Below, piece by piece: positions 1-36,400 of a stretch of 53,810 nt of DNA. Origin of the DNA: a virus (taxonomy: Duplodnaviria > Caudoviricetes); IMG/VR virus record IMGVR_UViG_3300043436_003945, positions 1 to 53,810 of that record. One strand, 5' to 3'. The position numbers and the translations under genes were made by a program. Each line of letters starts with the position of its first letter. The first letter of the stretch is position 1. A model generated the notes under the pieces. That model had not been told where the DNA came from and ran no database searches. It saw only the letters and a program-made list of their open reading frames with translations.

Positions 1-347
1 ACGTTAGTACAGGAAGATAACACTCCAGTTATCGGTACGTTTGGGAGTGGCGCTCCCCCGACCCGAGCCCGCCAGCAGTTTGCCCTACACTGCATCGCCC
101 GTAAACGGGAACCTATTTAGATTGGGCGTTTGGACGATGGCGGTTTACGGCGAGCCGCTACACAGAGCGACAAATGGCACGCCGGAAAATGATTGCAGCG
201 ACCGAGGGCGTTCATTGTCTCACCTAACTTTTAGTTTGGATATAACTTCAGCGTCAAAGGGATGACGCGCTTGGGTAGTATGGTAAACGCGCTCGGTATG
301 CCGAGGTGACGGTGCTGCAAAATTGGTGTTGGAAAGAACGAAAAGGA

Positions 348-463
348 TGCCCCCTAGAGGAATCGAACCTCTGCCCCCAGCGTCTTTATCGAATCGGCTG
401 CTCAGGCCTACTCTATCCGTGAGCGGTGGAAAGACCGGGAATCTGCCACTGAATTAAGGCGGC
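348..463 (-). tRNA. tRNA-like gene with a 45-nt insertion in the anticodon arm (Glu-UUC or Gln-UUG if spliced); no encoded CCA
   Basis: Reverse strand folds as acceptor GCCGCCT/AGGGGGC+A, D arm ATTC-AGTGGCA-GATT, anticodon stem CCGGT/GCTGG, 4-nt variable loop and T arm AGAGG-TTCGATT-CCTCT; 116 nt = 71-nt tRNA body + 45 nt. Confidence 0.75.
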
Positions 464-579
464 GTGTACTTAAAGAACGTGTCGCTGTCGACGTGGGAGA
501 ATCTGTATAAAAACTTTTATGTTAGCGAGTAAAACCTTTTGAGTGCTGGTGTCGGTTGTTGGGTGCCAACGGGTTATCG

Positions 580-2472
580 TCAAAGAGAATCCATCGTGTC
601 CGTGCTGCCGATACGCTGAACGTAGTCGTCGTTTGATTCGCGGACGCCCGCAGCACCGGTTGCGCTGGGACTGCCGTCCATCGACAGGCGGCAGACGTGT
701 ACGAGAATCGAGAGTGCGTCCGCTCGGTCTGGAGACTTGTTGCCTCTGGATTTGTACTCCTTCTTGGATTCGACCTTGATCTTTTTTCCGGAGAGCAGGA
801 ACCGCCGTCCTGTAAGTTCTGCCACGAGAGGATCGAGCGGGATGCTCGGCGAAATCTTGACGAGGCCGAACTCGATGAACTTGCGCATCGCGAACCAAAG
901 TTCGGAGACGAGGTAGGAGTATTCGTCGCACGGGAGCTGCGTGTCCTCGTCGAGAATCTTCCGTTCCGTAGGGGCGTGCGAGCCGTTGATTCCCTTGGTG
1001 CCGGAGTTGAACGTGGAGACCAACAAGTCGTGGACGCCTGCACCGTTGCCCGTCCGGTCGACGCCGAGGTAGTTGCCCTTCAGATACGCGCCGTTGCAGA
1101 TGCGGACAATCTCGTCGACGAGTTTGAGCGTGTCGCCCTTGGGGAGCGGGAACATCTGCTCGACCTGAAGGACTTCTCGACGGATCGTTTCGCCTCGGGC
1201 GTCTTTGAACGGAACGAAGACGCCGTTCTTTTTCCAGCCGGTCGCGAGTCCGAACTTGCCGAGGACGAAGATCGCGTTGTCGCCGCCCTCGAGCGCGACG
1301 TCGACCGCGCCCACCGTCGTCGGGGGCTCGGAAAATTCGTACGTGCCGTAGAGATCGTGGGTGAGGTGCTGCGGAATGATTGCGAGGTCGATACCCGTCG
1401 GAGGGTACCACCCGCGCGCCATCGTGTAGTAGCCTGCTGTGCCGACGCCGCCCGCGTTTCGGATAAGGGCGTCGAGGCCTTCGCGGGTCTGCATGCCGAA
1501 GAAGATTTCTTTTCCGGTCTGCACGTTCTCGGACTTGTACGCGTCAAGACGAATGACCTTCCAGCCGCGCTTTGATTCCCATTCGTGCGAGTTCTCAATG
1601 TCGATTGACGCCCACCCGTCCACGGGTTCAGTCCTGATTGCGCAGGGGCCGTTCGGGTCCTTCGGATTGAAAGGTGCGACAACCTTGAGCTGTCCGCCGG
1701 CACGAGCGTTCGAAACCAAGTTCGTCAAGTCCTCGAAGAGACCGATGGGGATGTTCTCCGCTTCCTCGAGGATTACCCGAACTCTCGTCCCGGGGCCGAG
1801 CTGGGGGTGGACCTTTGGACGGGCGAGGATCTTGACACCCTGCAAGCGCCCGGCGGCCTTCTTGCCGGTAGGGGCCACGATACCGAAGATGCCGCTGTCC
1901 CGGGCCACCGAGTCGAGCGTGATACCTAGCTGCACCAGTTCGCCGGGCCCGGGGATCGAGGCGTTCTTGTGGAGCTTTGCTAAGTGGGAGAAAAGATTGC
2001 GCTCCAAGTGGCCCTCGCTTGGGCCGGCGATGAGGATGTTGGTGAAGTGCGGATCGCGCCGCCAGTCGAGATAGCACCAGACGCCGACGTTGTACGACTT
2101 GCCCATCGACGCGGCCCCGGGCACCATCACCAGCGTGTTCTCGAAGATGCCCTTCCAGAGCCTCGAGACGTTCTGGGGTTCGCCGGAGAAAAGGTTGGCC
2201 GGCCAGAGTAGCGTCGCGGCGTCAACGTAGCGTTGCGAGTCGAGGAGGAACTGGAGGAACGACTGGAGGATCGCGATGGCGGTTTCCTCCGACATCTTTG
2301 CCGGCCGGGCCTGCTCGAGAAAGTCTAGCGTGAGCAGTGCTGCCGTCTGGCGGTTGCCCGTGTGCAGCGGAAACGACACCTGCTTGACGAAGTCGGCGAT
2401 GGGTCCGCCGGTCACGAGGGTAGTCGGGCTTGGAATCGTTGACGCGATGGGTGTGGCGGCTAAGTTAGACAT
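580..2472 (-). CDS. terL: Terminase large subunit
   Basis: Walker A GAASMGKS, Walker B VILEEAE, RNase H-like nuclease motifs AVDVALEGGD, GVDRTGNG, SPDRADAL. Confidence 0.92.
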   Translation of the reverse strand: MSNLAATPIASTIPSPTTLVTGGPIADFVKQVSFPLHTGNRQTAALLTLDFLEQARPAKMSEETAIAILQSFLQFLLDSQRYVDAATLLWPANLFSGEPQNVSRLWKGIFENTLVMVPGAASMGKSYNVGVWCYLDWRRDPHFTNILIAGPSEGHLERNLFSHLAKLHKNASIPGPGELVQLGITLDSVARDSGIFGIVAPTGKKAAGRLQGVKILARPKVHPQLGPGTRVRVILEEAENIPIGLFEDLTNLVSNARAGGQLKVVAPFNPKDPNGPCAIRTEPVDGWASIDIENSHEWESKRGWKVIRLDAYKSENVQTGKEIFFGMQTREGLDALIRNAGGVGTAGYYTMARGWYPPTGIDLAIIPQHLTHDLYGTYEFSEPPTTVGAVDVALEGGDNAIFVLGKFGLATGWKKNGVFVPFKDARGETIRREVLQVEQMFPLPKGDTLKLVDEIVRICNGAYLKGNYLGVDRTGNGAGVHDLLVSTFNSGTKGINGSHAPTERKILDEDTQLPCDEYSYLVSELWFAMRKFIEFGLVKISPSIPLDPLVAELTGRRFLLSGKKIKVESKKEYKSRGNKSPDRADALSILVHVCRLSMDGSPSATGAAGVRESNDDYVQRIGSTDTMDSL

Positions 2473-2630
2473 GGGCTTTGAGTTTCATGAAAAATTTTAA
2501 AAAATTGCGCGAGTAGCCTAGCCGGACGTTCTCGCCGATTCCCCCCGTCGGGGGTCCCCTTTTTGTCCGGCCGGTTGACCGGCTCAGAGGGGAGACGTCC
2601 GTCCGACTGATCGAGGCATGGACCTATCGA

Positions 2631-2648
2631 CGGCAGGGTAGGGGAGGG
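2631..2648 (+). promoter_or_regulatory. Overlapping KOPS-like octamers (GGGNAGGG) oriented toward the dif-like site
   Basis: CGGCAGGG (1 mismatch, 2631-2638), GGGTAGGG (2636-2643), GGGGAGGG (2641-2648). Confidence 0.55.
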
Positions 2649-2707
2649 GAGCAGGCTGATGGACTTGTGGCCTTTGCGTCGTGCTGGCGTGATGGCGGAA
2701 AGTCCAC

Positions 2708-2735
2708 ATTAAACATAATAAACATTGTAGGCACT
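2708..2735 (-). other. dif: dif-like XerC/XerD recombination site
   Basis: AGTGCCTACAA-TGTTTA-TTATGTTTAAT vs E. coli dif GGTGCGCATAA-TGTATA-TTATGTTAAAT: 22/28 identical, XerD arm 10/11. Confidence 0.75.
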
Positions 2736-3427
2736 TATGTTTGGGCGTTGGAATTGAACCACGATTGAGAGAGGTCCATGTCTGCGGGGTCGGGCTGGAC
2801 GTCGGCTAAGGCTGGCGGGGGGCTAGGAGGCCTCGCCGTTCTGATTCTAAGGCAATTGGTACAGACCACGTCGCACTTGGCCACCTCAAGCTCCAGCTTC
2901 GGTAATTGCAGCCAGCGGTAGGCAGAATGGATGAGGTGTTTTCTCTCGCCCCGAACATGGTGGAAGTTCATGCAGACCGAATCGAATGTACCTCCGCAAT
3001 CAACACACGGTCGTGCTTTCTTGGCGGCCAGCCACGCAACGCGCTCAGAAATGATTGACGAGGTTTTGGTTTTAAAGGCTCGGCACTGGTTGCACTGCCG
3101 GGATCGGTAAGTTTTACCATGTACGCGAGTCAACACGAACCGCCCGACAGGTTGGGACCTATGGCAGCGGCTGCACTTCTGGCTGTCTGTTGTCAGGAGC
3201 TGTTCGATGTGCTCGCCTGACACAGGCTGCAAACGGCTGGGAATACGCGTGGAGTTCGGAGTATGCGTGCCTGAGTCGATTGAGATGTCGTTCAGCGATG
3301 CAGGGGGACACGTTGGAACGTGAGTTGATGATTGCGTGTCGAGGGATGCGGGCGAATCGGCAGGTTCGTGACAACCACTCGTCTCCATACCAGCACTCAA
3401 AGAATTTGCGGAGCTGTTCGAGTTCAT
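2735..3427 (-). CDS. HNH endonuclease-like protein with Zn-binding CxxC pairs (true start may be internal)
   Basis: CSRC, CNQC, CVDC...MNFHHV...KCDVVCTNC; located between terS and terL. Confidence 0.7.
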   Translation of the reverse strand: MNSNSSANSLSAGMETSGCHEPADSPASLDTQSSTHVPTCPPASLNDISIDSGTHTPNSTRIPSRLQPVSGEHIEQLLTTDSQKCSRCHRSQPVGRFVLTRVHGKTYRSRQCNQCRAFKTKTSSIISERVAWLAAKKARPCVDCGGTFDSVCMNFHHVRGERKHLIHSAYRWLQLPKLELEVAKCDVVCTNCLRIRTARPPSPPPALADVQPDPADMDLSQSWFNSNAQT

Positions 3428-3432
3428 CGAAT

Positions 3433-4023
3433 TTACTCTGTTGCGAGCGTCTCATCTTTCACGGCCTTGAGAATTTGTTTGGTGGCATCGACCGCGTCGA
3501 CGTTAAATCGGTTGCCTAGTGCTTTGTATACGGCCAACGAAACCGCAGCAACTCCAGCCTCTGCGGTCGAGGTGTCGGCGTCCTGCGCCAGCTTATCACC
3601 CAGCGCACGGTACTTGATGTCGCCGAGGATCTGGGTGCCTTTAGCCAGATCGACGATATTCTTGACGCTGAACGAGGTCTCGCCCTGACCGTCCACCACA
3701 GTGCAGAATGCGCGCGCAAACTTCTCGTCGCTGTCGAGATCCTTGATGAGGTTGTTGAACACACGCTCGAGCCGCATCGCATTCGCGTACGTGGACACGC
3801 GGTTCATCACTCTCTCCGTCTCGATACCTTCGTCGGTATCCAACCGGCCACGACCGCCGGCCTTCGCCTTCCAATTGTAATCGTGCGCCAACTCCTCGAT
3901 CTGCTTGACGGGCGTACGAGTCACGACAGCGACGCGCTCGACGTTGCCACCGAACATCGTGTAAAGAGTAAACAGTTGGACTTGGTCTGGGTCGCGGACC
4001 CAGTCATCTTTCGTTACGGTCAT
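3433..4023 (-). CDS. Probable terminase small subunit
   Basis: N-terminal HTH-like segment (GGNVERVAVVTRTPVKQIEELAHDYNW), helical protein upstream of terL, preceded by the GATACT motif. Confidence 0.5.
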   Translation of the reverse strand: MTVTKDDWVRDPDQVQLFTLYTMFGGNVERVAVVTRTPVKQIEELAHDYNWKAKAGGRGRLDTDEGIETERVMNRVSTYANAMRLERVFNNLIKDLDSDEKFARAFCTVVDGQGETSFSVKNIVDLAKGTQILGDIKYRALGDKLAQDADTSTAEAGVAAVSLAVYKALGNRFNVDAVDATKQILKAVKDETLATE

Positions 4024-4029
4024 CTAATG

Positions 4030-4035
4030 AGTATC
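4030..4035 (-). promoter_or_regulatory. Late-gene GATACT motif
   Basis: GATACT-6 nt-ATG(4023); recurs before four other minus-strand genes. Confidence 0.6.
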
Positions 4036-4129
4036 GGTTAAACATTGAGCACGGAAGGGTCTAAACGAACAGACGGCACGACGGCCCACCGTTAAGGAAA
4101 AGGGCCTTGGCCGACCCTCTACCTCTCCG

Positions 4130-4314
4130 ACTCTACAAAGACCCTTTCTCACCGGACGAAAAAAACGGTCAGTTGAACCGGCGAGCTAAAACCAATTTCA
4201 AACTCTACAAACACCCTATCTCAAATAATATCTTTGTAGAGTTCTAACCATAGTTTGGCCAAGGTACCCCCGGACCCTGTTTTTTTGCCGGGACAGATTG
4301 TGTCTTTGTAGAGT
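4130..4314. repeat. Dyad-symmetric array of four 12-bp ACTCTACAAA(G/C)A boxes (candidate origin or regulatory centre)
   Basis: Direct copies at 4130 and 4202, inverted copies at 4231 and 4303; 72-bp spacing in each pair; common axis at 4222. Confidence 0.85.
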
Positions 4315-4376
4315 AAATCGTCGAAATCCGCTTAAAAACCCTCGCATAGGCGTACAAACACCACTATCCAGATACT

Positions 4377-5162
4377 ATGTCTCAGATACAAACACCCGGA
4401 TACAGATTCATCGCACTCAACGTCGGTAAGGGGGCCCGGGGCCGAGGTGGCTCGAAGGTCAGCCCTCATCGTCTATTCGTCGTCGATTCCGACGCTCAGC
4501 TTCCTAATCGGGTCTGGCTCGCGATGGCCCGGCACAGTCAGGTGTTCGTTCCGGAGGCCGACGGCAGTGTCGTTTACGCGCACGAGCTGGTGCTCGGCCG
4601 CAAGCCGACCGACCGCGAGCGCATCCTGTACAACAACACGGACCCACTCGACCTTCGAAAAGCGAACCTTTCGTACGTCAACAAGTACGACCCAACGATC
4701 CCGCAGGCCGTCTTCAATCCCTGCCCCGGCTTTGTAACGAGCCGGCTCGCTGGCTACGAAGAGGCCCTCAGCGAAGCCTACCAGAACTACGAGGCTCTGA
4801 GAAAAGTTCAACGGCAGGAGCACGGTTGGGCCATCGGCAAGAGCATGGGGTCGATGAGCAAGCACGAGGTGCTCTCGCTGCTGAAGTTCTATTCGCAGAA
4901 CTGGACCGACGAGGAGATTGAGTACCACACCGACAAGCGCCTCGGCACAAGCATGGACGACTGCGCGTGCTTTATCCGCGAGGACCTGCAGCACCCGAAG
5001 GTCCCGACCGAAGCGCATATTCGCAACATCCTCAAGGGCAAGTCTCTTCGACTGCAGGGTCAGGACGCCCTGTACGCAAAGATCGCGAAGCTGCTGCCCA
5101 CATACAAGAGCCTGCTCGTTCCGCTTCCGAAGACCCCGATGTTTCAGTCGATTAAACCTTAA
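4377..5162 (+). CDS. Protein with a degenerate HNH-like N-terminal domain; putative DNA-binding protein
   Basis: YAHELVLG...RILYNNTDPLDLRKANL resembles HRLIMG...VDHINGDxLDNRKxNL but lacks the catalytic His/Asn. Confidence 0.55.
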   Translation: MSQIQTPGYRFIALNVGKGARGRGGSKVSPHRLFVVDSDAQLPNRVWLAMARHSQVFVPEADGSVVYAHELVLGRKPTDRERILYNNTDPLDLRKANLSYVNKYDPTIPQAVFNPCPGFVTSRLAGYEEALSEAYQNYEALRKVQRQEHGWAIGKSMGSMSKHEVLSLLKFYSQNWTDEEIEYHTDKRLGTSMDDCACFIREDLQHPKVPTEAHIRNILKGKSLRLQGQDALYAKIAKLLPTYKSLLVPLPKTPMFQSIKP

Positions 5163-5167
5163 CAAAT

Positions 5168-5527
5168 ATGAACAAAGAACGACAAAGAATAGCCATCGCG
5201 GAAGCGTGCGGATGGAAGAACGCTGACCATCCCGACGCAATGAAGCTCAAGCAGGGTTGGACCATGCCAGAAAAGTGGTGCATGGACCCAAAGGGCGTTT
5301 TGCGCTTTAACCATCACAGGCCCGACTACTTAAACGACTTGAACGCCATGGCCGAGGCGGAGAAGGTGTTGCGGGACGACAGAGAAGCTGCCTTTCGTGG
5401 ATGGTTATGGCTTGCGCACGGACAACCGGAATTGCGGTGCGCTATCGTCCACGCCACCGCCGCCCAACGTGCCGAGGCTTTTCTTCGCACGATTGGCAAA
5501 TGGGAGGACGAAAAACAAAGCCGATGA
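5168..5527 (+). CDS. Conserved phage protein (phage ABA-sandwich-like)
   Basis: RIAIAEACGW...PDYLNDLNAMAEAE...ATAAQRAEAFL pattern. Confidence 0.6.
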   Translation: MNKERQRIAIAEACGWKNADHPDAMKLKQGWTMPEKWCMDPKGVLRFNHHRPDYLNDLNAMAEAEKVLRDDREAAFRGWLWLAHGQPELRCAIVHATAAQRAEAFLRTIGKWEDEKQSR

Positions 5528-5814
5528 AACCAACCTACGACAAACAGTACTTCATCGACAAGTTCGCCGCGATCCCCGAGGACCGCTGGATCACCTCATT
5601 CTATGCCGACCCCGACGACGACAGCCGCTGCTGCGCCTTCGGGCACTGCGGCGTGCGATTCCTGATGTCGGGGCCCAACGACGGCGAAGAAGCCGCCGCC
5701 CTCGCCAGTCTGCTTCAGCACCGCACCGCAAGCATCAACGACGGCCAGCACGAAAGCTACCAACAGCCGACCCCGAAGCAGCGCATTCTCGCAGCACTCA
5801 ACGACCTCCCGTAA
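5524..5814 (+). CDS. Hypothetical early protein (96 aa)
   Basis: ATGA overlap with upstream gene; YFIDKFAAIPEDRW, CAFGHCG. Confidence 0.7.
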   Translation: MKPTYDKQYFIDKFAAIPEDRWITSFYADPDDDSRCCAFGHCGVRFLMSGPNDGEEAAALASLLQHRTASINDGQHESYQQPTPKQRILAALNDLP

Positions 5815-5829
5815 AACCACGAAGCGCCA

Positions 5830-6027
5830 ATGAGCCAACTCAACTACACGTTCAAACACGGCGTGGCGAACGACAGGATTCTCATCGAGCTGCACTCGAA
5901 GTTTGGTGAATATGAAACTATCCTCAGCCGCACCGTCATCGACACGCAGGACAAAATCATTCGCAAGGGCTTGGTGAAGCTCGGCTGGACGCCGCCCTCA
6001 ACGACCTCCCGTAGGCACGGAAAATAG
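5830..6027 (+). CDS. Hypothetical protein
   Basis: ORF in the densely packed + strand cluster. Confidence 0.6.
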   Translation: MSQLNYTFKHGVANDRILIELHSKFGEYETILSRTVIDTQDKIIRKGLVKLGWTPPSTTSRRHGK

Positions 6028-6040
6028 TTCAAAATAATTC

Positions 6041-6075
6041 TCGACACGCGCGGGCCGCAGGTCCACAACAGGGGT
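6041..6075 (+). promoter_or_regulatory. Early promoter (leaderless type)
   Basis: A-tract + TCGACA beginning exactly 35 bp before ATG 6076. Confidence 0.6.
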
Positions 6076-6297
6076 ATGGAAATTTCCACCTCCGACGCGC
6101 GCCTCACTACTCTCCGCAACCTCGCCACCGCCGCCGAGCGAGCCGGGCTTACTGAAGCCTCTGCGGTTGCCTTTCGTCTTTTTTGGATGGGTGACACCGG
6201 CCGCGCCACGGTCGAACAAATCAGCAACACAACGGCCAACCTTCGGGACATCCTCGCTTACCGCCTCGGCCGCGACGTAGCCAACGCCATCCGTTGA
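6076..6297 (+). CDS. Hypothetical early protein
   Basis: ORF directly after the promoter motif. Confidence 0.7.
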   Translation: MEISTSDARLTTLRNLATAAERAGLTEASAVAFRLFWMGDTGRATVEQISNTTANLRDILAYRLGRDVANAIR

Positions 6298-6323
6298 GCG
6301 GCAAAAACAGTTGAAGATTTATC

Positions 6324-6358
6324 TCGACCTCGACAAAACTTCGGCCCAACTTCAGCGC
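6324..6358 (+). promoter_or_regulatory. Early promoter (leaderless type)
   Basis: TCGACC exactly 35 bp before ATG 6359. Confidence 0.55.
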
Positions 6359-6664
6359 ATGAACTCGACCAACAAAACTAAAGACGAACAGATCTCCGCG
6401 CTTTGCGCCCAGTGCGACTCGGCCAGCAGCGCAGCCTCCTCCTCTCTCGAACAGATCGCCGCCGCGACCAGCGCCCGCAAGCGTGCCTCTTGGAAACGCG
6501 AGCACGCTGTGCGCTTGCTGAAGCTCGAAAACGCTTCGCTGACCCTTGCGCTGGCTCTTTGCATGCAGCCCCATGCCGCCGACGAGCTGACGCCCTCGAT
6601 GCGCCAGCACGCCGAACACATCCACACCTACGCCATCCGCAGCCTCAAAAACTTCCGCGCATGA
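6359..6664 (+). CDS. Hypothetical early protein (start re-called to 6359)
   Basis: In-frame ATG fits the promoter spacing; ATGA overlap with next gene. Confidence 0.65.
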   Translation: MNSTNKTKDEQISALCAQCDSASSAASSSLEQIAAATSARKRASWKREHAVRLLKLENASLTLALALCMQPHAADELTPSMRQHAEHIHTYAIRSLKNFRA

Positions 6665-6966
6665 ACGCAGAACTCCAACCGCACCGCGTCGTGAGCAAAA
6701 CGCAAAACCTCATCTCGGCCATCCTTCCCGATGCGCTCAAGAAGGGTTGCACCTACGTCCCGAGCTACAACAGCGACGGATCGTTTCAAGCGGCGGTTCT
6801 GGCTCGCTTTTCAAAAGGCAAGCGGCCCCGCCTGCTCGCCGGGGTGAGAATTGAACCAACCGGCTGGGCGACGGATTTGACCGTCGATCTTTCGGTATCT
6901 CGCTCCTTCCGCGCCGACGAACGGACGGTTCGAGGGCTCTTGGGAATAACGCAATCTATCGCATGA
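6661..6966 (+). CDS. Hypothetical protein
   Basis: ATGA overlaps on both sides. Confidence 0.65.
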   Translation: MNAELQPHRVVSKTQNLISAILPDALKKGCTYVPSYNSDGSFQAAVLARFSKGKRPRLLAGVRIEPTGWATDLTVDLSVSRSFRADERTVRGLLGITQSIA

Positions 6967-7163
6967 CCGCCTCCGACCTCGAATCCAACATGAACAACCG
7001 CACAAAACAAATCCTCAAAACCGCTGCCTCGGTGGTCGTATCGACCGCATTCCTCGTCTACTCGTTCTCGGGCCTGCCGGGCTTTGAAATTGCGTTCTTC
7101 GCATTTATGGGCTTCTTCGCCACCCACACGTTCGGGTCGGTGTGCGGTCTGTTCGACCTCTAA
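6963..7163 (+). CDS. Small membrane protein
   Basis: Two hydrophobic segments (AASVVVSTAFLVYSF; IAFFAFMGFFAT). Confidence 0.6.
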   Translation: MTASDLESNMNNRTKQILKTAASVVVSTAFLVYSFSGLPGFEIAFFAFMGFFATHTFGSVCGLFDL

Positions 7164-7179
7164 TTTCAAAACTAATCCT

Positions 7180-7344
7180 ATGCTTGCCCTACTAAAACGT
7201 CTGCTCAAAACCACGGCGAAGCCGGCCGTCAAACCGGCGCACAGTCTCGCGCACGCCGAGTATCTCCGGCTCTACAACCTCGCATACTCTGAACCCTCAA
7301 GATTCCCTCGCTCCGCGCTGCTGGTCCGCTATTCTATACGATAA
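7180..7344 (+). CDS. Small basic hypothetical protein
   Basis: MLALLKRLLK...; TAATG coupling with next ORF. Confidence 0.55.
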   Translation: MLALLKRLLKTTAKPAVKPAHSLAHAEYLRLYNLAYSEPSRFPRSALLVRYSIR

Positions 7345-7508
7345 TGCACATCGACGACTTTACTTCTTCCCGCGCCCGCACCCCGACAGAGGTGCAGGCC
7401 GGTATGATTGCAGACCTCGAAGCGCGGCTCGCGCTTGCCGACGAAAGGCACTTCTTTTTGATGGCCGAGAACGCACGGTTACGAGCTGAATTGGAGGTCC
7501 ACAAATGA
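7344..7508 (+). CDS. Small coiled-coil protein (54 aa, not in ORF track)
   Basis: MHIDDFTSSRARTPTEVQAGMIADLEARLALAD...; coupled to both neighbours by TAATG and ATGA. Confidence 0.6.
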   Translation: MHIDDFTSSRARTPTEVQAGMIADLEARLALADERHFFLMAENARLRAELEVHK

Positions 7509-8275
7509 ACCCACCCGACCAACCCACCGCCACGCCGCGCACGCAATCGCAGTTGCTACCGATCAATAGCCACACGCTACCCGGCGACGTAGTTTATGCC
7601 GACTTCGCCCGCACCCTTGAACGCGAACTCACCGAAACCGAACGCCTGCGATTTGGTGCAGATGCGGACCGCCGCCGCCTCAGCGCCGAGGTGGAGCGGT
7701 GGAAAACCGTTGCCGCCGAGATGTCACAGCAACGAGAGCACAACGCCAACGAAGCGAGCCGCCTCCGCGCCGAGTTTGCCACGCTGACGATGCAGGCCTG
7801 CGCCGCCGCCGACAGGAATGTGAGCTTCCGCTTGGAGGTTGCCACCCTCCGCGCCGAGGTGGAGCGGCTGAACAAGGAGAACGATTCAGCACACGCGGCA
7901 CTCAGGGACAGCGTTGGGCATTTGGTTTATGCGGTTGAAGTCGCCCGCGCCGAGAAAGCTGAGGCCGACAACGCCAAGTGGCAAAGGCTGCTCCTCATGT
8001 CCCGCGACGACCGCGAGATTGATCTTATCAGCGAGGTTGAGGAGCAAGCCCGTCTGCTTGGCATGTCAGGAGAACGAGAAGCCGACCTGTTAGGAAAACT
8101 TGAACGCGCTAAGGTGACAGAGAGGCTTTGGAAAGAATTTATTACCGTACTTGAAATCGTTGAAGAAAGCGATTCCGGTTACAAATTTAACCCCAACAAA
8201 ATTAGCAGTTGTCGGGCACTGGATGGCCGCAAACTTAATGAGATTCTTGTACAAGCTCGGGAAATAGTTTTTTAA
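7505..8275 (+). CDS. Coiled-coil phage protein with internal repeats
   Basis: Repeated L(S/R)AEVER heptads. Confidence 0.7.
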   Translation: MNPPDQPTATPRTQSQLLPINSHTLPGDVVYADFARTLERELTETERLRFGADADRRRLSAEVERWKTVAAEMSQQREHNANEASRLRAEFATLTMQACAAADRNVSFRLEVATLRAEVERLNKENDSAHAALRDSVGHLVYAVEVARAEKAEADNAKWQRLLLMSRDDREIDLISEVEEQARLLGMSGEREADLLGKLERAKVTERLWKEFITVLEIVEESDSGYKFNPNKISSCRALDGRKLNEILVQAREIVF

Positions 8276-23465: not shown

Positions 23466-25697
23466 ATGTTTTACGCCCTCGACAACTTAGTGTCCAAGGA
23501 AGTCAGTCCCTGCGAGACGCCTTGGACGGTCGCAGTCACAATCCCAGACGAAGTCCGGGGCAAGGCAGGCAAAAAAGCCCGTGACGCTTGGATCAACGAC
23601 CCGACGACCCAGCACAACGTCTATTCGTCGTTCGAAGGCTTCATCGACAACCTGCGCGTTTCCTCGCCGAAGAACGAGGAGGGCAACCCGCCCCTGCGGA
23701 TGCACGCGTTCATCGCGGACATCGACGCAGCCCTGACCCTCGACGAAGTCGAGAAAGGACTGCTGCGCGTGCCCTTTGCGCCGAACTGGCTGGAGCGCAC
23801 GCTGTCCGGAAACGTGCGGTTGATTTGGCTGCTGGAGAAACCGGTCTCGTTCCCGAACCGCCGATTTGCGATTGAATTCTTGGAGTTCTCTCTGGCTCGG
23901 CTTCGCCTCGACATGATAGCCGTCGGGTTCGACAAGGGCGCATATCTCGACCCAAACCGGTACTACACCAACTCGGGGGAGTGGCTTTGCGCGGACGCCG
24001 ACGCCCGCATCTCGGCCGAACTAATAAACGGCTGGGTGGTCGAGATTGCGGCCAAGCACGTCTGGAAGAAAGATCGCGGGGCGGTCGACATTCCGCTCCC
24101 GATTGTGCAGGCCGCAATCGAGAAAAAGTACCCGACCTTTGTTTCGGCTTGGGTGGGCGACTTTGTCGAGGGCGCAACCGGCCCGACATTCTGGGTCGAA
24201 GGCTCCTCCTCGCCGAAGTCCGCAATCGTAAAACCGACAGGCCTGTTCACCTTTTCCGCGCACGCAATCAAGCCGTTTTATTCTTGGGCGGATCTGCTCG
24301 GAAAATCGTTTGTCGAAACCTACTCGGCCGAGGCGATGGGCCGGGCGGTCGACGGCATTCTGTTCGACGGCCAGAAGTACTGGCGCAAGGACGGCTACGG
24401 CGACTGGAAGAATTATTCGAAAGAGGACACGGTCTCGCACCTCTCGATTGACCGAGGGCTTGAGAGCAAGAAGGGCGAGAACGAGTCCTCGGAGACCTCC
24501 CGGGCGATCCAGTACATTCAGAACTGGCAGAATGTCGTCGGGGCGGCTCCGTTTGTTTTCCAGCCGAACGGCGTGCTGTCGAAGCAGGGCAACAAGTTTC
24601 TCAATACGCACACCCGGCGCACCTGCCAACCCGCGCCCGGACCGGTGGTGTGGGGCCCTACGGGGCAGATGCCCTTCCTGTCGGCGTTCTTCGACGGGTT
24701 CTTTCATCCCGACTCGAAGGCCGACGTCCCGGGCAAACCGCTCGACTACTTTCTCGCGTGGCTGCACCGCTTCTACAAGGGTGCGTACGAAAACAACCTC
24801 GAGTCCGGGCAGAACATTTTCCTCTGCGGTGCCCCCGGGGTCGGAAAGACGTTTCTCAATCAAGGCGTGTTGCCGTATTTGCTGGGCGGCGGGGCCGACG
24901 CGGAGTCGTACCTCCTCGGCGTCTCGGAATTTAATTCGCAGCTCTTCGAGGTCGCATACTGGTCCATCGACGACAACTCCGCGACCGTCACTGAGGCCTC
25001 GCATCGCAAATTCTCGACGATGATTAAGAAGATGGCCGCGAACACGACCTTCCAATACCACGCGAAGTTCCGGGTGCCGTGCATGGTCGACTGGATGGGG
25101 CGGGTTGTGGTGACTCTTAACGGCGACGAGGCCTCAATGTCGATGTTCCCCGATTTCGCAATTTCGATCAAGGACAAGGTCGAAGTATTCCGCACTGCCG
25201 ACACGGCCGCAGTCGCTTTTCCCTCGCGTAACGAGTGCAACAAAATTATCAGTAACGAGGTGCCGTATCTGGCGCGCTTCCTCCTCGACTTTGAAATCCC
25301 GAAACACATCCAAGGCACCAGCCGCTTCGGCGTCGTGTCCTACCACGACAGCTTCCTCATCCGCACGGCCGAGCAAGGTAGCCTTACTTCGGCCTTCGTC
25401 GAAATCTTGGACGACTGGCGTTCTTCGTATTTCAACGAGCACGGCGACTTGGAATTTTGGGAGGGCTCCGCGTATCAGTTCCTCAAAGAACTCCACAAAG
25501 ATTCTGCTGGAACTGCTGCAGGAATTCGCAACTACACCGCAAAAAAGATTGGCCTCGAACTTGCCGCTGTTCGCTCCAAAGGGATCTCGGGGATCGAGCC
25601 GGTCGATACCGACGGCCTCGTCAGGACTTGGCGCATCTACAAGGCCCCGAAAGTGAAAACCAAAGAACTCCCAACCGGCAGCAAATTTCAAAACTAA
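23466..25697 (+). CDS. Primase-helicase (PrimPol-like N-terminus, SF3-like C-terminal ATPase)
   Basis: FIADID, RTLSGNVRLIW; Walker A GAPGVGKT, Walker B SIDD, VVTLN. Confidence 0.8.
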   Translation: MFYALDNLVSKEVSPCETPWTVAVTIPDEVRGKAGKKARDAWINDPTTQHNVYSSFEGFIDNLRVSSPKNEEGNPPLRMHAFIADIDAALTLDEVEKGLLRVPFAPNWLERTLSGNVRLIWLLEKPVSFPNRRFAIEFLEFSLARLRLDMIAVGFDKGAYLDPNRYYTNSGEWLCADADARISAELINGWVVEIAAKHVWKKDRGAVDIPLPIVQAAIEKKYPTFVSAWVGDFVEGATGPTFWVEGSSSPKSAIVKPTGLFTFSAHAIKPFYSWADLLGKSFVETYSAEAMGRAVDGILFDGQKYWRKDGYGDWKNYSKEDTVSHLSIDRGLESKKGENESSETSRAIQYIQNWQNVVGAAPFVFQPNGVLSKQGNKFLNTHTRRTCQPAPGPVVWGPTGQMPFLSAFFDGFFHPDSKADVPGKPLDYFLAWLHRFYKGAYENNLESGQNIFLCGAPGVGKTFLNQGVLPYLLGGGADAESYLLGVSEFNSQLFEVAYWSIDDNSATVTEASHRKFSTMIKKMAANTTFQYHAKFRVPCMVDWMGRVVVTLNGDEASMSMFPDFAISIKDKVEVFRTADTAAVAFPSRNECNKIISNEVPYLARFLLDFEIPKHIQGTSRFGVVSYHDSFLIRTAEQGSLTSAFVEILDDWRSSYFNEHGDLEFWEGSAYQFLKELHKDSAGTAAGIRNYTAKKIGLELAAVRSKGISGIEPVDTDGLVRTWRIYKAPKVKTKELPTGSKFQN

Positions 25698-26524
25698 TGA
25701 CACCAGAAGTCGATTTCTACCGGGCCCCTAAGTTCTATTCGAACTTCGAGTTCAGGGCCATGAGTTACCGCCTAAACGAACCCGTGAAGCGGGGGTACTA
25801 TCCTTTAGGAGTGCCGGAGATGCTCGTGCTGTCCGCCGTCGACGAGAAGGCTCTGTTCGAATCCTACGCGCGCCGCCGCACCGTCAAGACCCGCGAAAAG
25901 TTGGTTCGCCGGTACATTTGCTGGGCGTACAAGATGGCCACGAAGCTCTGCGGCCCGCGTCTCGAAATCGACGACGCGATCTCTGCGGCCAACGTAGGAC
26001 TCATGGAAGCCCTCGAGACTTTCGACGCCTCCAAGGGATCGAAGTTCACGACGCACTCGTATTTCGTGATCCGCAGACACTTAATCGAGGCGCTAGTCGG
26101 CACGTACCCGGTCCACGTCTCGCAACATATCCGGAAAAAGATGAAGATGCAGCCAATCTCCTCGGTCGAAACCGAAGAGGACGAGGCACCAAAAAGTCTC
26201 GACGAATTGTTTGAGCGACTAGGCGCGCAAACGGATTTTCAGATGGCCGAAATGTACGAACGTCCCGAAGACTGCACGTCGATTTCTCCGACATCGGTAT
26301 TGGCCGAGGACGAGCTGGATCGCTCGCAGACGTTGGACAAAATTCGTATTTTTGTCGACACGAAGCTAACGCCGCTCGAACGAAAAGTTTTTGTCGGCCG
26401 CCACTACAAGGACCCGCAGGTTTCTTTTGAGACGCTTTGCACCCGACTCAAGACCACCAAGTTTGCCGTCCGGGAGGCCTACCGGACCGCACTCGAAAAA
26501 GTTCAGGCCGAATTCAAACCATGA
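25697..26524 (+). CDS. Phage sigma70-family RNA polymerase sigma factor
   Basis: Region 2 DDAISAANVGLMEALETFDASKGSKFTTHSYFVIR; region 4 LTPLERKVF...AVREAYRTALEK; TAATG coupling at 25697. Confidence 0.88.
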   Translation: MTPEVDFYRAPKFYSNFEFRAMSYRLNEPVKRGYYPLGVPEMLVLSAVDEKALFESYARRRTVKTREKLVRRYICWAYKMATKLCGPRLEIDDAISAANVGLMEALETFDASKGSKFTTHSYFVIRRHLIEALVGTYPVHVSQHIRKKMKMQPISSVETEEDEAPKSLDELFERLGAQTDFQMAEMYERPEDCTSISPTSVLAEDELDRSQTLDKIRIFVDTKLTPLERKVFVGRHYKDPQVSFETLCTRLKTTKFAVREAYRTALEKVQAEFKP

Positions 26525-30480: not shown

Positions 30481-33400
30481 CTAGAAGGGGTTTTCGTCGT
30501 CGGTCGGCTCAACCCGATTCCGGGTCGCCGTTTCCTCCGCGAGTGACTGGTCTTTAATCTTTTGCGCGCGTGCTACAACCCTTTCAAGAACTCGACGAGA
30601 ATCTTGGCCTCTTTCGAGCGTGATTCCGGCGAGGGGGAGGGTTGGGTCGGCTCCTGCTTTTGCAGGATTCTCGTTATCGAGGATTGCAGCCGTGTCAATT
30701 CCGAGTCTTTCGAGGACGGCTGCGACTTTTGGATTTTTGAGGAGTTCTTCATAGAATTCGGGCGTGTTAAGTATATCGCCTTGCGTTAGCGAAGCGAGGG
30801 TTTCCGCCGAAGAACGGCCCTCGACAGTGCCCTCAACGAGGGTCTTAAAAAACGACCAAATTGTCTCCTGTACTTCGGCGGGTTTGATGTCGAGCGTGTC
30901 GGCGACGCGGCGCACTTTGGCGTTGAAGGCCGCATATCCGGCCTTTGTGCCGAACAGAGTCTGCGAAATACCGGCGAACTGCGCCATCCACGAATCGTTT
31001 GTCGAGGCTTGAAGGTCGCCGAGGAGGTTGCGACGAAAACTTTCGACCTTAAAACCGGACATTTTGGTGTCTTCGTCAAATTTCTTCGACGACGCAATCG
31101 GGTTGTCTTCGAGGTCTTTTCCGAGCAGTGCGCGGATGGTGTTGTTTTCGCGGGCCGAAAGACCCACCAATGGTTTTACCAACTCTTTGATCGTCGCAGC
31201 CTCTTCCGGTCGTCCGGCTTCGAGATACTTTTCCCAAATATCGAACGCCATCTCCATGTTTAATTGCACGGACTGCCGGGGCGAAGTTGCGGCCAACACA
31301 CCGACAAAATTTTCGGTGTCGTTGCCGAAGATCGTGCGCAGCGAACGTCCGGCGCGTTCGTACCAGCCCTTTTTCAGCATGCCCATCTTGACGGCAGCCT
31401 CAAATTCCACGTCCGGCGGCAGCTCTTTAAAGATTTCGAGCATGTCGGCCGCAGTGTTTTTGCGGATTTTAGAGCGCTCTTCGGGAGTCAGGTATTTTGC
31501 GATTTCTTTGTAGGGGCGGGTCAGCCGGACGTCGTCGGCTTCCGGCATAAAGCGCCGGTTTATCTCAAACCCGTCGGCCTCCAGTGCTCGTCCTTCCGGA
31601 AGATTCCAGATCGACTTGCGAATGCCTTCTGCGGAGAGCTGCCCGGACGCCTCGGCAAGCTTTGCGGCCTCGACGCGAGTCATAAATTTACCTTTGTTGT
31701 CTACAAACCCGAAGGCCGAAGAAGGCACGTCGTCAGTCGTCGCACCTTCGTCTACAAAACCCTGCTCCTGCATCCGCTCAAAGGCGTCGTAGTGCTTTGC
31801 TCCCGTAAAGACTTCGCCGTCGAACCGGATCGCGGCTTTGTCGACGCGCCGCTTTCCTTCGGGCATAAAGCGAACATTTCCGGTCTTTTCGTATTCTTGC
31901 AGACGGTCAAAGTACGCGCCCGTGCTTCCGTACTTTTTGCGCAACTGAGCGGCGACCTCGCGGCCCTCCGGGGTCTCGAGTCGGCTGCGCGGCGTGCGGA
32001 CGTCGGTCTCCGATACCGGGGTGCCATCAACCGACACCTTCTCAAATATCTCGACCTGCTTAAAGAGATCTTTGCCCTCGCCGCGAGTGCGGATCAGCCC
32101 CACGTACCCGGCATCTTTCAGCATTATGTCCGCGCGCTGGCGGTTGGCGTCCTGCGTCCAGTCTAGCGCGTCAGTATCGCCGTCGTATATCCGTTTTCCG
32201 GAAACTGGAATTTCGTATTTGTTGCCCCGAAGCTGCGAGGGGTCGCCCTTGTTCTCAAAGCCCTTAACGTAGAAAAATACGCGCGGCTCGCCGGAGAGTT
32301 CGGACCGGGGCGTGATGCGGCTAGAGCCAAACTTTGCGGGGTCGAGTTCGCTTAGACCGGCCGCACCACGGTGGACGAGCGTGAGCGTCTTGTTTCGGAT
32401 TGCGTCCGGGAGTTTCTTCGGGGCGTCAAACTGCACTTCGGGCAGGAAGCGAATGTCGGGGTTCGTCGGGTCGAACGCACCGGAGTTGCCGGTCGCGGAT
32501 TTGACTTGGGTCGGTTCGAAGACGGCATAAGTATTTCCGACTTCAACGCCCGGACGAATCGGGTCTTCCTCAAAAATAACTCCGTCGTACCCGGCCTTTT
32601 TTAACCCTTCGGCAAACATTTTGCCGTCCTCGCCGTCGAGCAGCTCCCACCACGTGCGACGGTTCTGCAGCCAGTTGTAGTTCACGCCAGTCTCTTCGGC
32701 CAGAACATCGAGGTTGGTGTTTCGGTCGAGATACAGCGGGGACTTCATGTCCAAGTACGCGGGGATTGTGCGAGCGCCCGTATCGGCTCGACCTTTAGAA
32801 TCCGTGACGTAAGAGGCGGCTTGTTCCGGCACGTCTGAGAAAAAGATTGCGTGCCGATTGGTCTCCACGTTCCCAAAAAAACCCATGTCGTCAAAGGTCT
32901 TGCGGCCAGACTCAAACGCCGTAAAATCTTTGGTGGTGGCGTGGTAGACTCGCTTCGGTTGACCTTTTGAGTCTACCACCACCGACACCGGCCCCTTGCG
33001 GCGACTTGTAAAAGCCTTCGGGTCCTGCCAGTCGCCAAACCATTTCTTGAATGCGGGCGTATCCGGAGCCTCCGGCATAAACGTAGCGCCCGGACCGTAG
33101 TATTTCGTCAGGTCGTCGGCATACACGCTCGACTCCATGCCGTCCTCAAAACGAACGTACGCCATCTGCGCGCCGTCGCGTGCGCCGCCCTTTTTTGGCA
33201 GCAAATCGGACACGAACTCCACGACCTTTCCGGACGGGAGTTCAAACTTGTCGCCCTCCTCGTAGCCGGTCGGCTCGACCTTTGCTATCTTGGCGCGCAT
33301 CTTCTCGCGCATCGACTCACCGAAGCCCTCTAGCTGACTGTCTTCGGGCATGAACGCGGCCTGCGGGTCTGCAGCCTGCAGCAGCTCCGGCGGCACCACG

Positions 33401-36400
33401 GTATTTTTCTGGTCGGCAAACCGGCGTTTTGCAATCGGGACAAAATCGGCGTCCCCGGCTTTCGGCAGCGAGCCGTCTGCCCGACGCAACTGCGGACCAA
33501 AGTTCACCCAAGCATTCTGCGCCAACGTCTCGGCGGCGAGTGCGGGCTTTGCTTCGTCGGAGAACATGCGCGAGTGCGCAAGGTAGGCGTTGTACTCGCC
33601 GCGAGGGCCAAACTCAAACCCCTCGGCCGTGTGGCCAAAGTAATCGTGGACCGCCCGGAAGAGGTCGTTGTAAAGGAGGTCGACGCCGTTAATCTTGATG
33701 CCAGACTTTTCAAGCAACACGTTGTTGCCTGCGTCTGCGCCTTCACCAAAGGCGTTCTTTGTCAGGAAAAAATAGAGGTGTTTGTTGTCGCGAACGTCCG
33801 CGAGCATCGCCGCAGAGTTGGCGTATGGCTCGCCCTTGCCCTCGTAGGGCTCAATCTCGATGCCGTTGGCGAGCATCTCGTCGTACTGAGCGCGAGTCTC
33901 TTCGGAAAGCGCCCGATACGCCTTCTGAACCTCGGGGTTCTCGGGCTCGTTTTTTGCGTTCTCGTAAAAATCGGCGATGCGCCTAAGCGTCGTCTCGTTG
34001 ACGGGTGCGTAGGTGTCGTGCGGAGCGGCTTGGATTCCAGCCTTTTGAGTGTATCGGGCTGCGACACTGCGCGTTTCGTCGTTGCCTTGCGGGCGACGGG
34101 GAGATCCGGTCTCGGGCATAAAGCCCGCCTGAGTAATCGCGACATCCGCCGCAGGCATTGCGACATCGGGACGCACTTTGATCGCCGAGGTGAAATTCTC
34201 GGTCGGGAGATTCTCGACTGCGGAATTGAGGATGCGGGGGTCGAAGCCTTTCTGAAGCAGCGCAGCCCGGAGCGCGTTGTTGTCGGTGAGCGGGCGACCC
34301 TTATCGTCGAAACCGACCGTAAGGGGGTCAATGCCGTTCTGCTTTGCGAACCTCGCCGAGAACTCCATGCCCGGCGTGCGCGTCGCCTGCTGCTCGAGGT
34401 TCAGGAGCAGATTAAAGAGTTGGCGTTTGTTGGTCGGAAGAGCGACCGGGACGAAATTCGGGTCCTGCGCGGTAATGGTCCCGGGCCGGGTATCTGCGGG
34501 CAACGATAGCTTCTTCCCGTCGCCGCCGTAGCCGTGCGCTTGGTTGTCGAGGTAGGTCCTGAAATCCGAGACGAGAGCATCAGAGGCGAGATACTCTTGA
34601 GACACGCCAAAATTGGACAGAGTCTCCGCAATTGCCGGAGTCTCTTTTGCGAGCCCGCGCAACAGGTCAAGATTCTGACCAACCTTGTCGACCGACATGC
34701 CGTAAATGCCGCCCGGCTGACGTGGCGCACCCTCGCCGTAGAGGCGGGCGTTTGTGGCGGCGTCGAGCTTGTACGAAGACCAGCGATACGGGACAAAGAG
34801 CTTCTGAAACGTCGCGCGGAACGGGTTCGGTTCGCCGGATTTCTCGAGCGCGTCTGCGGCTTTTCGCTGGGCGGCTCGGACGATTGCGTCAGGAGACTGA
34901 ACCGGGGAGGCGGCCGCGTAGTAGTCGGTCTCGACGGCCGGGATCTCGGCGCGCGGGGCGGACATAAGGCCTTCGAGGACCTCGCGGTTTGCGGTGTGGA
35001 GCGCATCGGGGGCCTTGGCGGCGAACTTGGACGCGGCACCGGGGCGCAAGTTTGGCGTTGCGACCGAGCCCTGCGGACGAGCGACATTCTCGACCTGCTT
35101 TGGTGCAACGGTGGTGGCGGCGGTCGCAGGCGTAGGTGCAACGGCAGCACCGAACGGCGTCTGCGGCGTCACAGGCGAAGCCGGGAACACCGTCTTGTTC
35201 GGATCGACTTTGCCCGGAGAGATCGGGGAAACAAGAGAGGCCTCGTCGGTCGTAGCGATCAACCGTTTGCCGGTGTCGGGGTCGATGAACTCAATTTCGT
35301 AGGTGCCATCCTCGTTTTTCCGCAGAACCTTCGCGTCCTCGGCAACCAGCATTCCGTTCTTGTCGCGAATCTCGCCAATTGGGTCACCTTTCTTGAACCC
35401 GGGAACGACCGGCTTTGCTTCGACCTCGCGGATGTTGCCCAAAGGAGATGTTGGCGCATTTGCGGGAACCGGCGCGATTGGCGCATTTGTGGCGCGATCT
35501 GCAGGGCCTTCTACTGGCGGTAAGGTAACGTCAATTGGAGCGGTTTCACCGTTGATCGTTGCGACGGTCGTGTTGTCGAGCTGCCGGGCCTCGATGAAAT
35601 TTTGGTAGAGTTCCGCGAGCGCGGCCGACGGTTTGTAGCCGAGTTCGGTGCGGACTGCCGCACTGTTGTCGGTCGTCAGTCGGCGCGCGCCACCCTTTTC
35701 GAGAACCGCTCCAATAGAGACGCGAATGCGGTCGGCAAGACCGCGAGGCGTACCGAACTTTTCGATTGGGACGCCGTTTAGGTAGGCCGAAAAGTTCTCC
35801 GCAATGTACTCTTGGGCTGCGTAATCGTCAGAAATTTTGACCCGCTCGGCCTCCGGGACCGGAGTATAAGAACCGTCTTCGTTGCGTTTTTGGTTGAACA
35901 GATCCTCGTAGCGGGTTTTGAGCTGCGCAAAGTCGTCGGGCCGAATGGTTTTTGAGACCGTATCGAGCAGGGCCTTTTTCTGGGCGTACGGGAGGCTTGC
36001 ATAAAATGCGTGGCCGACTTCGTGCCCGAGCGAAATCCCGCCGTTGCTGTCGGCGTTGATGACAACAAGGCGGCGCTTCTGACCGGGAATCTCGACCGAG
36101 AACCCGGCCCGGCCCTGCTCCGACCCGGCGTATTGTTTTGCCAGAGCGTCTGCAGTGGCGCGGTCTGCCAGATAGATTTCGGTTTTGATCCCGTTGGCGT
36201 CCGGCTTGACAAAGAGCTTCTTCAAGGCCTCTACGGTCTGCGCGCCCTTGTTTGAGAGCGTGTCAAATACCTGCTTCGATTTGGCCTCGACGACGTTGCC
36301 TTGATCTTGAGAATAATAGGAAAACTCCGGACGCTCGTATGCGGAGTCCGGGGCCTTTGCGGTAGCATCCCGAAAAGCCGAGTCAATCGAGAAATATCGG

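Follow-up and report, generated by a model that had tools for sequence, protein, structure and literature searches.

Gene context of the locus

The stretch of DNA analysed in this study (hereafter the window) is the whole of an IMG/VR virus record of 53,810 bases, which is classed as linear and 76% complete and has a G+C content of 57.6%. The gene at 580–2472 on the minus strand encodes a protein of 630 aa with the Walker A motif GAASMGKS, which is probably a divergent large terminase subunit (terL) as judged from its sequence: the nearest named ESM Atlas clusters are labelled 'putative Terminase', and Terminase_6N/6C is found in 10–20% of their members. The protein gave no match in sequence searches of Pfam, PHROG or PDB, and it defines a divergent family that extends over at least 50 phage contigs from lakes and soils. 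Upstream on the minus strand, an HNH endonuclease gene (2735–3427; phrog_2255, E 4.9e-24) lies immediately next to the cassette described below, followed by a gene for a 196-aa protein (3433–4023, minus strand) that is a candidate small terminase subunit (terS) by its position; this gene is conserved in the related loci L002 and L003, and its product has no family match in Pfam or PHROG. The first-pass annotation had placed the site between terS/HNH and terL. The HNH gene bears this out and terL is probable, whereas the terS label was not confirmed.

The other products of the window include a tail fibre, a head decoration protein, DNA polymerase A, a primase-helicase, a PD-(D/E)XK nuclease, a helicase, an RNA ligase, a sigma factor, a Holliday-junction resolvase and endonuclease VII. 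The sigma-factor-like protein is encoded at 25457–26524 (phrog_351, 9.1e-18). Genes for ParB, a repressor or an integrase were not found, and positions 1–8000 of the window had no megablast match among GenBank phages.

Two further conserved elements lie between the cassette and terL. A short G+C hairpin of the form CCCCC-loop-GGGGG at 2537–2556 probably terminates transcription of the unit upstream. A leader element, CTA(A/G)G...AATTTTTTAAAATTTTT, immediately precedes terL at 2473–2521 on the minus strand; it is unique in the window and may be a promoter or leader of terL. The 17-nt A+T run of this leader is the sole A+T run of at least 14 nt in the window, and the terL start has no obvious Shine-Dalgarno sequence.

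The dif-like core and the G-run

A Xer-type core of 28 bp occupies 2708–2735 on the minus strand and is composed of a XerC-like arm, AGTGCCTACAA (2725–2735), a 6-bp centre, TGTTTA (2719–2724), and a XerD-like arm, TTATGTTTAAT (2708–2718). Compared with E. coli dif in the sequence given by Kono et al. (PMC3025954), the core agrees at 7/11, 5/6 and 10/11 positions in the three parts, giving the 22/28 with a XerD arm of 10/11 that had been claimed initially. The core starts on the final base of the HNH stop codon and lies 236 nt upstream of the gene at 580–2472. It is present once in the window and likewise once per genome in those genomes of relatives that were searched.

On the XerD side of the core, a G-run block, CGGCAGGGTAGGGGAGGGGAG, is located at 2631–2651 on the plus strand and is a putative FtsK loading site. 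Two perfect and overlapping GGGNAGGG octamers start at 2636 and 2641, and an octamer matching at 7/8 positions, CGGCAGGG, starts at 2631, all on the plus strand; the three overlapping octamers described by the first-pass annotation were thus recovered. The block (21 nt) reads 5'→3' towards the XerD arm and ends 56 nt from it, the spacer covering 2652–2707, and so it stands on the XerD side in the permissive KOPS direction, which was calibrated on a chromosomal dif (G035). Neither the sequence nor the length of the spacer is conserved in relatives. On visual inspection, the window, L002 and L012 showed RGTCCAT-like repeats in their spacers, which were considered as accessory sites; the repeats are not family-wide and were rejected as such.

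Neither the core nor the KOPS is significant from the window alone. KOPS octamers are not enriched in the window (8 found against 6.57 ± 2.31 expected), and, as estimated from the KOPS counts of the window, the probability that a KOPS of specified orientation falls within 100 nt of any chosen point is about 0.006. The XerD-arm motif with at most one mismatch is expected 0.40 times in the window and occurred at least once in 32 of 100 shuffled sequences.

Conservation in related loci

Relatives were collected through the terL protein and terL alignments, which yielded 53 IMG/VR loci, three MAG contigs and 15 metagenome contigs. Twenty-six loci were checked for TTATGTNNANT within 800 nt upstream of terL, and 39 loci had been covered by an earlier and looser screen. 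Exactly one TTATGTNNANT was present upstream of terL in 21 of the 26 loci, each time after a 6-nt centre and a XerC-like arm, and the remaining five, which are more distant, had none within 800 nt. The statistics below refer to a set of 20 loci with terL 48–82% identical, obtained after removal of L011, which is almost the same as L010, and of two duplicates (L066 and L068).

Mean pairwise identity among the 20 loci was 0.26 in the 30 nt before the site, 0.69 in the XerC arm, 0.53 in the centre, 0.87 in the XerD arm and 0.30 in the 30 nt after the site. Conservation stops exactly at the borders of the 28 bp, and the inner halves of the arms are the most conserved. The family consensus of the core is ACGACGCACAA-N6-TTATGTTTA(g/a)T; in the XerC arm the four outer positions are variable, whereas the seven inner ones (CGCACAA) hardly change. 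In 161 proteobacterial dif sites, the XerD arm is more conserved than the XerC arm and the inner parts are conserved most, according to PMC2731167, and the variability profile of the phage family is the same as the profile reported there. The same paper describes the A at dif position 25 as highly conserved in proteobacterial dif; position 25 is T in the window and in 15 of the 20 loci, and A in L006, L057, L061, L062 and L007.

The centre is constant in length and was found in 16 different versions among the 20 loci. A centre that is fixed in length and free in sequence would be expected of the overlap region of a tyrosine recombinase, which need only match itself. The centres of the window (TGTTTA) and of L002, which is 82% identical (TAAACA, L002:1610–1615), are exact reverse complements, and that of L009 (TATACA) stands in the same relation to the canonical TGTATA; such pairs may be due to chance among A+T-rich near-palindromes.

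The G-run was detected in 19 of the 20 loci, with the consensus CGGcAGGGTaGGGGAGgG, always on the XerD side and at 31–109 nt from the arm. Identity was 0.74 within the G-run block and 0.31 and 0.28 on either side of it. A perfect GGGNAGGG on the XerD side and aimed at the site was carried by 18 of the 21 loci (17/20 in the statistics set), whereas none of the 21 had one on the XerC side aimed at the site and a single locus had one there directed away. Seven of the 21 loci had an additional GGGNAGGG on the XerD side that was directed away, always farther out. The three loci lacking a perfect KOPS are L007 and L063, which carry GGCAGGGTGGGG... with no perfect octamer, and L074, which has neither a G-run nor a perfect KOPS. 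Since both elements and their geometry are conserved in relatives, the arrangement is more than chance, and the co-occurrence and orientation of dif and KOPS for which the first-pass annotation had proposed to scan related phages were found in most loci of the family.

In L007 (2160–3000), a short truncated frame and then an extra gene come after the cassette and leader, before terL resumes. The end of the extra gene is HNH-like by eye (...WHVDHVKP...), and the insertion looks like a second homing-type HNH at the terL start.

Phylogeny and inversion of the site

A quick maximum-likelihood tree of terL was constructed with 35 rows. All of the 18 cassette-bearing rows group in a single clade (SH-aLRT 86), which splits into two subclades (support of 100 for both); six of these rows have the site in the reverse orientation with respect to terL, and they make up a single clade nested within it (SH-aLRT 99). 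The cassette loci therefore share one ancestor and one inversion, and the family counts given above are not independent events. In the six inverted rows, the core and the G-run are flipped together, and the hairpin and the A+T-rich leader keep their orientation, the hairpin being oriented in the same way relative to terL under both cassette orientations. The joint inversion of the core and the G-run indicates that the two blocks travel as a unit. In members of the inverted clade (L010:2650–2700, L011, L014 and L065), the G-run is bordered on its outer side by a C-run, CCCTCCCCCAC, so that two KOPS-like motifs diverge and the outer one is directed away from the site.

The inversion bears on the possibility that the site is some other cis element (an operator, a promoter or an origin) which is bound by a non-Xer protein and resembles dif by accident. 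The XerD-like arm does contain the −10-like hexamers TTTAAT and TATAAT, the phage encodes a sigma factor, and the motif lacks significance in the window alone. However, the site was flipped while the leader stayed in place, which argues against a terL promoter or an RNA element, and the motif is unique in each genome. No Rfam match exceeded the threshold, and the single-strand DNA fold of the cassette was not unusual (z −0.84). Together with the chromosomal likeness described below, these observations make an accidental resemblance highly unlikely. In the Rfam search of 2300–2900, the only hit was malK-III, with 16.3 bits against a gathering score of 50, and it was rejected. A repeated late promoter was likewise discarded, as the XerD-like motif and the leader motif each occur once in the window.

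Candidate host order and its chromosomal dif

The relative L057 was binned in a MAG titled Nitrosomonadaceae, and binning is weak evidence of a host. A search for the dif of this MAG matched only the phage site itself. Among 301 genomes of the order to which the MAG belongs, GCAYAA-N6-TTATGTNNANT was present in 118, nearly always once; the dominant centre in these 118 genomes is TGTATA, and TGTTTA occurs in about 11 as counted by eye. The XerD arm of two genomes of this candidate host order, TTATGTCTAAT, also occurs in the phage loci L070 and L072.

The site of one genome of the order (G035) is ATGTCGCATAA TGTTTA TTATGTCTAAT, and it is located at the GC-skew switch in the 400 kb examined. GGGNAGGG converges on this site within 200 kb, with 15 octamers towards and 4 away on the left and 31 towards and 0 away on the right, and it thus acts as KOPS in that order. 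A similar convergence of GGGCAGGG in most Proteobacteria is reported in PMC3384302. The nearest KOPS to the G035 dif are 2.7–3.3 kb away. The G035 dif shares with the window both the centre and the unusual T at position 25, and the arms of the phage family consensus equal those of this chromosomal dif at 18 of 22 positions, which counts against an accidental dif likeness of the phage site.

Recombinases and integration

The Phage_integrase family was absent from the window and from the genomes G001–G005, in keeping with the earlier statement that the window holds no integrase of its own. Resolvase, FtsK_SpoIIIE and ParB_N were absent from the genomes G000, G001 (97% complete), G003, G004 and G005. 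Given that the phages encode no recombinase, any reaction at the site would depend entirely on the host.

An integrase-less phage might use the site as an attP and integrate at the host dif through XerCD, in the manner of integrative mobile elements exploiting Xer (IMEX), which the first-pass annotation had offered as one of two roles. Such lysogeny would accord with the lack of an integrase and with the window centre TGTTTA, which is also the chromosomal centre in about 11 of 118 candidate-order genomes (by eye; confirmed in G035); the lineage described in the next section even has the canonical centre TGTATA, and PMC2680272 gives a precedent in E. coli, where a dif-carrying plasmid integrates at the chromosomal dif. 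However, the occurrence of 16 centres among 20 relatives speaks against it, and no phage centre other than that of the window was noticed by eye among the centres listed for candidate-order genomes. No integrated copy was detected in one genome each of 185,579 species, among which the hosts may be unsampled; only three MAG contigs of about 11–18 kb were retrieved. The class of the phage records in IMG/VR is linear rather than provirus. Moreover, known IMEX work without FtsK (bioRxiv 10.64898/2026.06.12.731946) and have no need for KOPS. Integration at the host dif is therefore disfavoured, the prophage copies sought at host dif did not appear, and we regard an IMEX-like attP as quite unlikely.

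The phage genomes also differ from chromosomes in the distribution of KOPS. A genome-wide strand polarity of KOPS towards the site, for which the first-pass annotation had suggested a count, was absent in five genomes, in which KOPS are few and of mixed direction, and no GC-skew switch was observed at the phage site.

A second tailed-phage lineage and wider scans

A scan of IMG/VR for the exact core GCATAATGTATATTATGTTAAAT returned at least 114 stretches, of which 80 were kept as loci. Most of the contigs with the exact core measure 5–15 kb and carry it close to one end, a pattern that IMEX-type elements would be expected to produce. Within 200 nt of the core in these 80 contigs, KOPS were found on the XerD side directed towards the core in 7 cases and away from it in 0, and on the XerC side towards it in 1 and away in 0. 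Three of the seven (L109, L154 and L168) belong to one tailed-phage lineage (lineage 2) with genes for terS (phrog_51), terL (phrog_38), the portal and the major head protein. In this lineage, the canonical dif core is exact at 23/23 positions with the centre TGTATA and sits in the gap immediately before terS-terL; CAGGGCAGGGCGGG or GGGCAGGGGAG, each holding GGGCAGGG, is placed 38–44 nt from the XerD arm and aimed at it. Among the terL relatives of lineage 2 (n = 75), the cassette was confined to the five closest (82–100% identity). No integrase was found in the three lineage-2 records, which are 73%, 44% and 20% complete.

A second IMG/VR scan with dif variants covered 45 contigs and gave one KOPS on each side and no further tailed-phage cassette. 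Across 125 other viral contigs with a dif core, a KOPS within 200 nt on the XerD side was present in only 8.

The position beside terminase genes in both lineages raises the question of a packaging signal (cos/pac), in which the terminase and HNH would cut the near-symmetric 28-bp block, the G-run would bind the small terminase subunit, and the likeness to dif and KOPS would be coincidental. The site of the window does lie between the HNH gene and terL, with the HNH beside the terminase genes as in cos phages, an arrangement that Kala et al. reportedly described in 2014 as typical of such phages; the lineage-2 site is likewise directly upstream of terS-terL, and the inversion of the core and G-run as a unit fits a two-part packaging site equally well. 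However, two unrelated terminase families would then need the same host-like sequence, the exact 23/23 canonical core of lineage 2 cannot be a coincidence, and a hypervariable A+T-rich centre of 6 bp would make a poor cohesive end. Logan contigs from four lake-water runs span the site with no pile-up of ends, although contigs cannot show termini. A packaging signal is thus an unlikely explanation, and the link with packaging consists of the recurring position beside terminase genes only.

Comparison with known Xer systems

The phage site shares with chromosomal and chromid dif (E. coli dif, and V. cholerae dif1 and dif2; PMC2533119, PMC2673442) the 28-bp order of XerC arm, 6-bp centre and XerD arm, the orientation of GGGNAGGG towards the site, and the placement on the XerD side, which is the FtsK-activating side. 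It differs from chromosomal dif in that the phage genome is about 70 kb, the site is not at a skew switch or terminus, and KOPS have no genome-wide polarity. The phage instead has one compact triple G-run at 31–109 nt, whereas the nearest KOPS of G035 is 2.7–3.3 kb away.

ColE1 cer and pSC101 psi (PMC5357621) are comparable as sites of small replicons that have no recombinase and borrow the host XerCD, and the XerC arm of the window ends in TACAA as in these sites. However, cer and psi work without FtsK and require about 180 bp of accessory sequence bound by PepA, ArgR or ArcA (PMC5357621), whereas the 30 nt on the XerC side of the phage site are unconserved (0.26), the HNH stop codon abuts the site, and the KOPS-like loader stands on the XerD side. 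IMEX such as CTXphi, VGJphi, TLCphi and the gonococcal island (PMC5357621, PMC6744903) resemble these phages as integrase-less viruses with a dif-like site. They are small and mostly filamentous, integrate at the host dif and bypass FtsK, whereas the phages considered here are tailed, with a large genome, hypervariable centres and an FtsK-loader motif, and no integrated copies were found. A further counterpart in layout is man-made: the 3CD89 and 3CD109 substrates of Bonne et al. 2009 (PMC2673442), of which the phage cassette would be a natural and conserved version with the same arrangement.

Proposed mechanism

Loading of FtsK on KOPS is directional, and the loaded translocase travels towards dif (PMC3130261, PMC2673442); on plasmids, three overlapping KOPS have been used experimentally to steer it (PMC2680272). 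Bonne et al. 2009 (PMC2673442) present dif with a triple KOPS directed towards it and a XerD-side arm of 89 or 109 bp as a minimal in-vitro substrate, and with XerD-side arms shorter than 114 bp the triple KOPS raises recombination more than 10-fold compared with none. The first-pass annotation had stated that FtsK must arrive on the XerD side. This holds in vitro according to PMC2673442, whereas in vivo an approach of FtsK from either side is expected (Graham et al., PMC2800217).

The idea of a self-contained cis cassette, that is, a Xer core with an FtsK loading motif on its XerD side, gained comparative backing from the 18-row clade with its one inversion. It is further supported by the lack of a phage recombinase, the same layout beside terS-terL in an unrelated lineage, and the match with the Bonne substrate. 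We consider it fairly probable that the site is a host XerCD/FtsK site at which phage DNA recombines with itself, so as to separate multimers or circularise the genome. The binding, the FtsK loading and the biological role set out below are inferred from sequence comparison. The XerC and XerD proteins of the host would bind the 28-bp core, and the host FtsK would load at the G-run 56 nt away, translocate from there to the XerD side and activate XerD. The site would pair with a second copy of itself on phage DNA rather than with the host dif, and the reaction would convert circular dimers, multimers or catenanes into unlinked monomers.

In an alternative version of this scheme, the site would lie in the terminal redundancy near the packaging start and would serve to circularise the injected genome, like Cre-lox in P1. 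The loxP of P1 is a single site near the packaging start that serves both the cyclisation of terminally redundant DNA and the resolution of dimers. P1 encodes its own recombinase (Cre), whereas here the recombinase and its activator would be those of the host.

Divergent centres on the replicons of one cell prevent fusions (Val et al., PMC2533119), and the divergent centres of the phages could in the same way keep them from fusing with the host chromosome. Extending this to the two lineages, we tentatively propose, with rather less confidence than for the role of the site as such, that virulent-looking tailed phages of several unrelated lineages carry a minimal 'FtsK loader plus dif' beside their terminase genes. 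The host XerCD/FtsK would circularise the injected, terminally redundant genome or keep circles monomeric and unlinked, and the drifting centre would be a private address against fusion with the host chromosome and with other phages.

Several observations stand against a Xer/FtsK reading. Position 25 is T in most loci, and three loci (L007, L063 and L074) have no perfect KOPS. Outside the cassette, KOPS lack polarity towards the site, the counts within the family go back to a single ancestor, and few of the other viral contigs with a dif core have a nearby KOPS on the XerD side. The genes are virulent-looking (polymerase, primase-helicase, sigma factor and nucleases), and with such a gene content there is no evident moment for septum-bound FtsK to meet the phage DNA.

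Plasmids, genomic islands and small integrating elements, filamentous ones among them, are known to exploit Xer, in most cases without FtsK. A search at the level of titles and abstracts, with most subscription journals outside its reach, found no published description of a dif and KOPS cassette in tailed phages. If the proposal is correct, large and integrase-less tailed phages would represent a new viral use of the host chromosome-segregation machinery, the cassette would be a recombinase-free analogue of P1 Cre-lox, and XerCD/FtsK would have a minimal substrate of natural origin. The cassette might also account for the circularised or monomeric genomes of some phages that have no recombinase of their own. 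Because its arms resemble the dif of the candidate host order, the cassette could additionally give a signal for host prediction.

Other features of the window

A giant ORF of 2431 aa at 30481–37776 lies in the structural module, and its PHROG matches are to families of unknown function only. The contig depth rises 3- to 17-fold at 5074–5607 and 7477–8000 of the window in three lake runs, and a junction from 5511 to 7592 that skips 2080 bases was seen in X1, X2 and X4. The depth peaks and this junction point to a segment that is shared or mobile, or else to an indel of 2 kb that distinguishes related phages.
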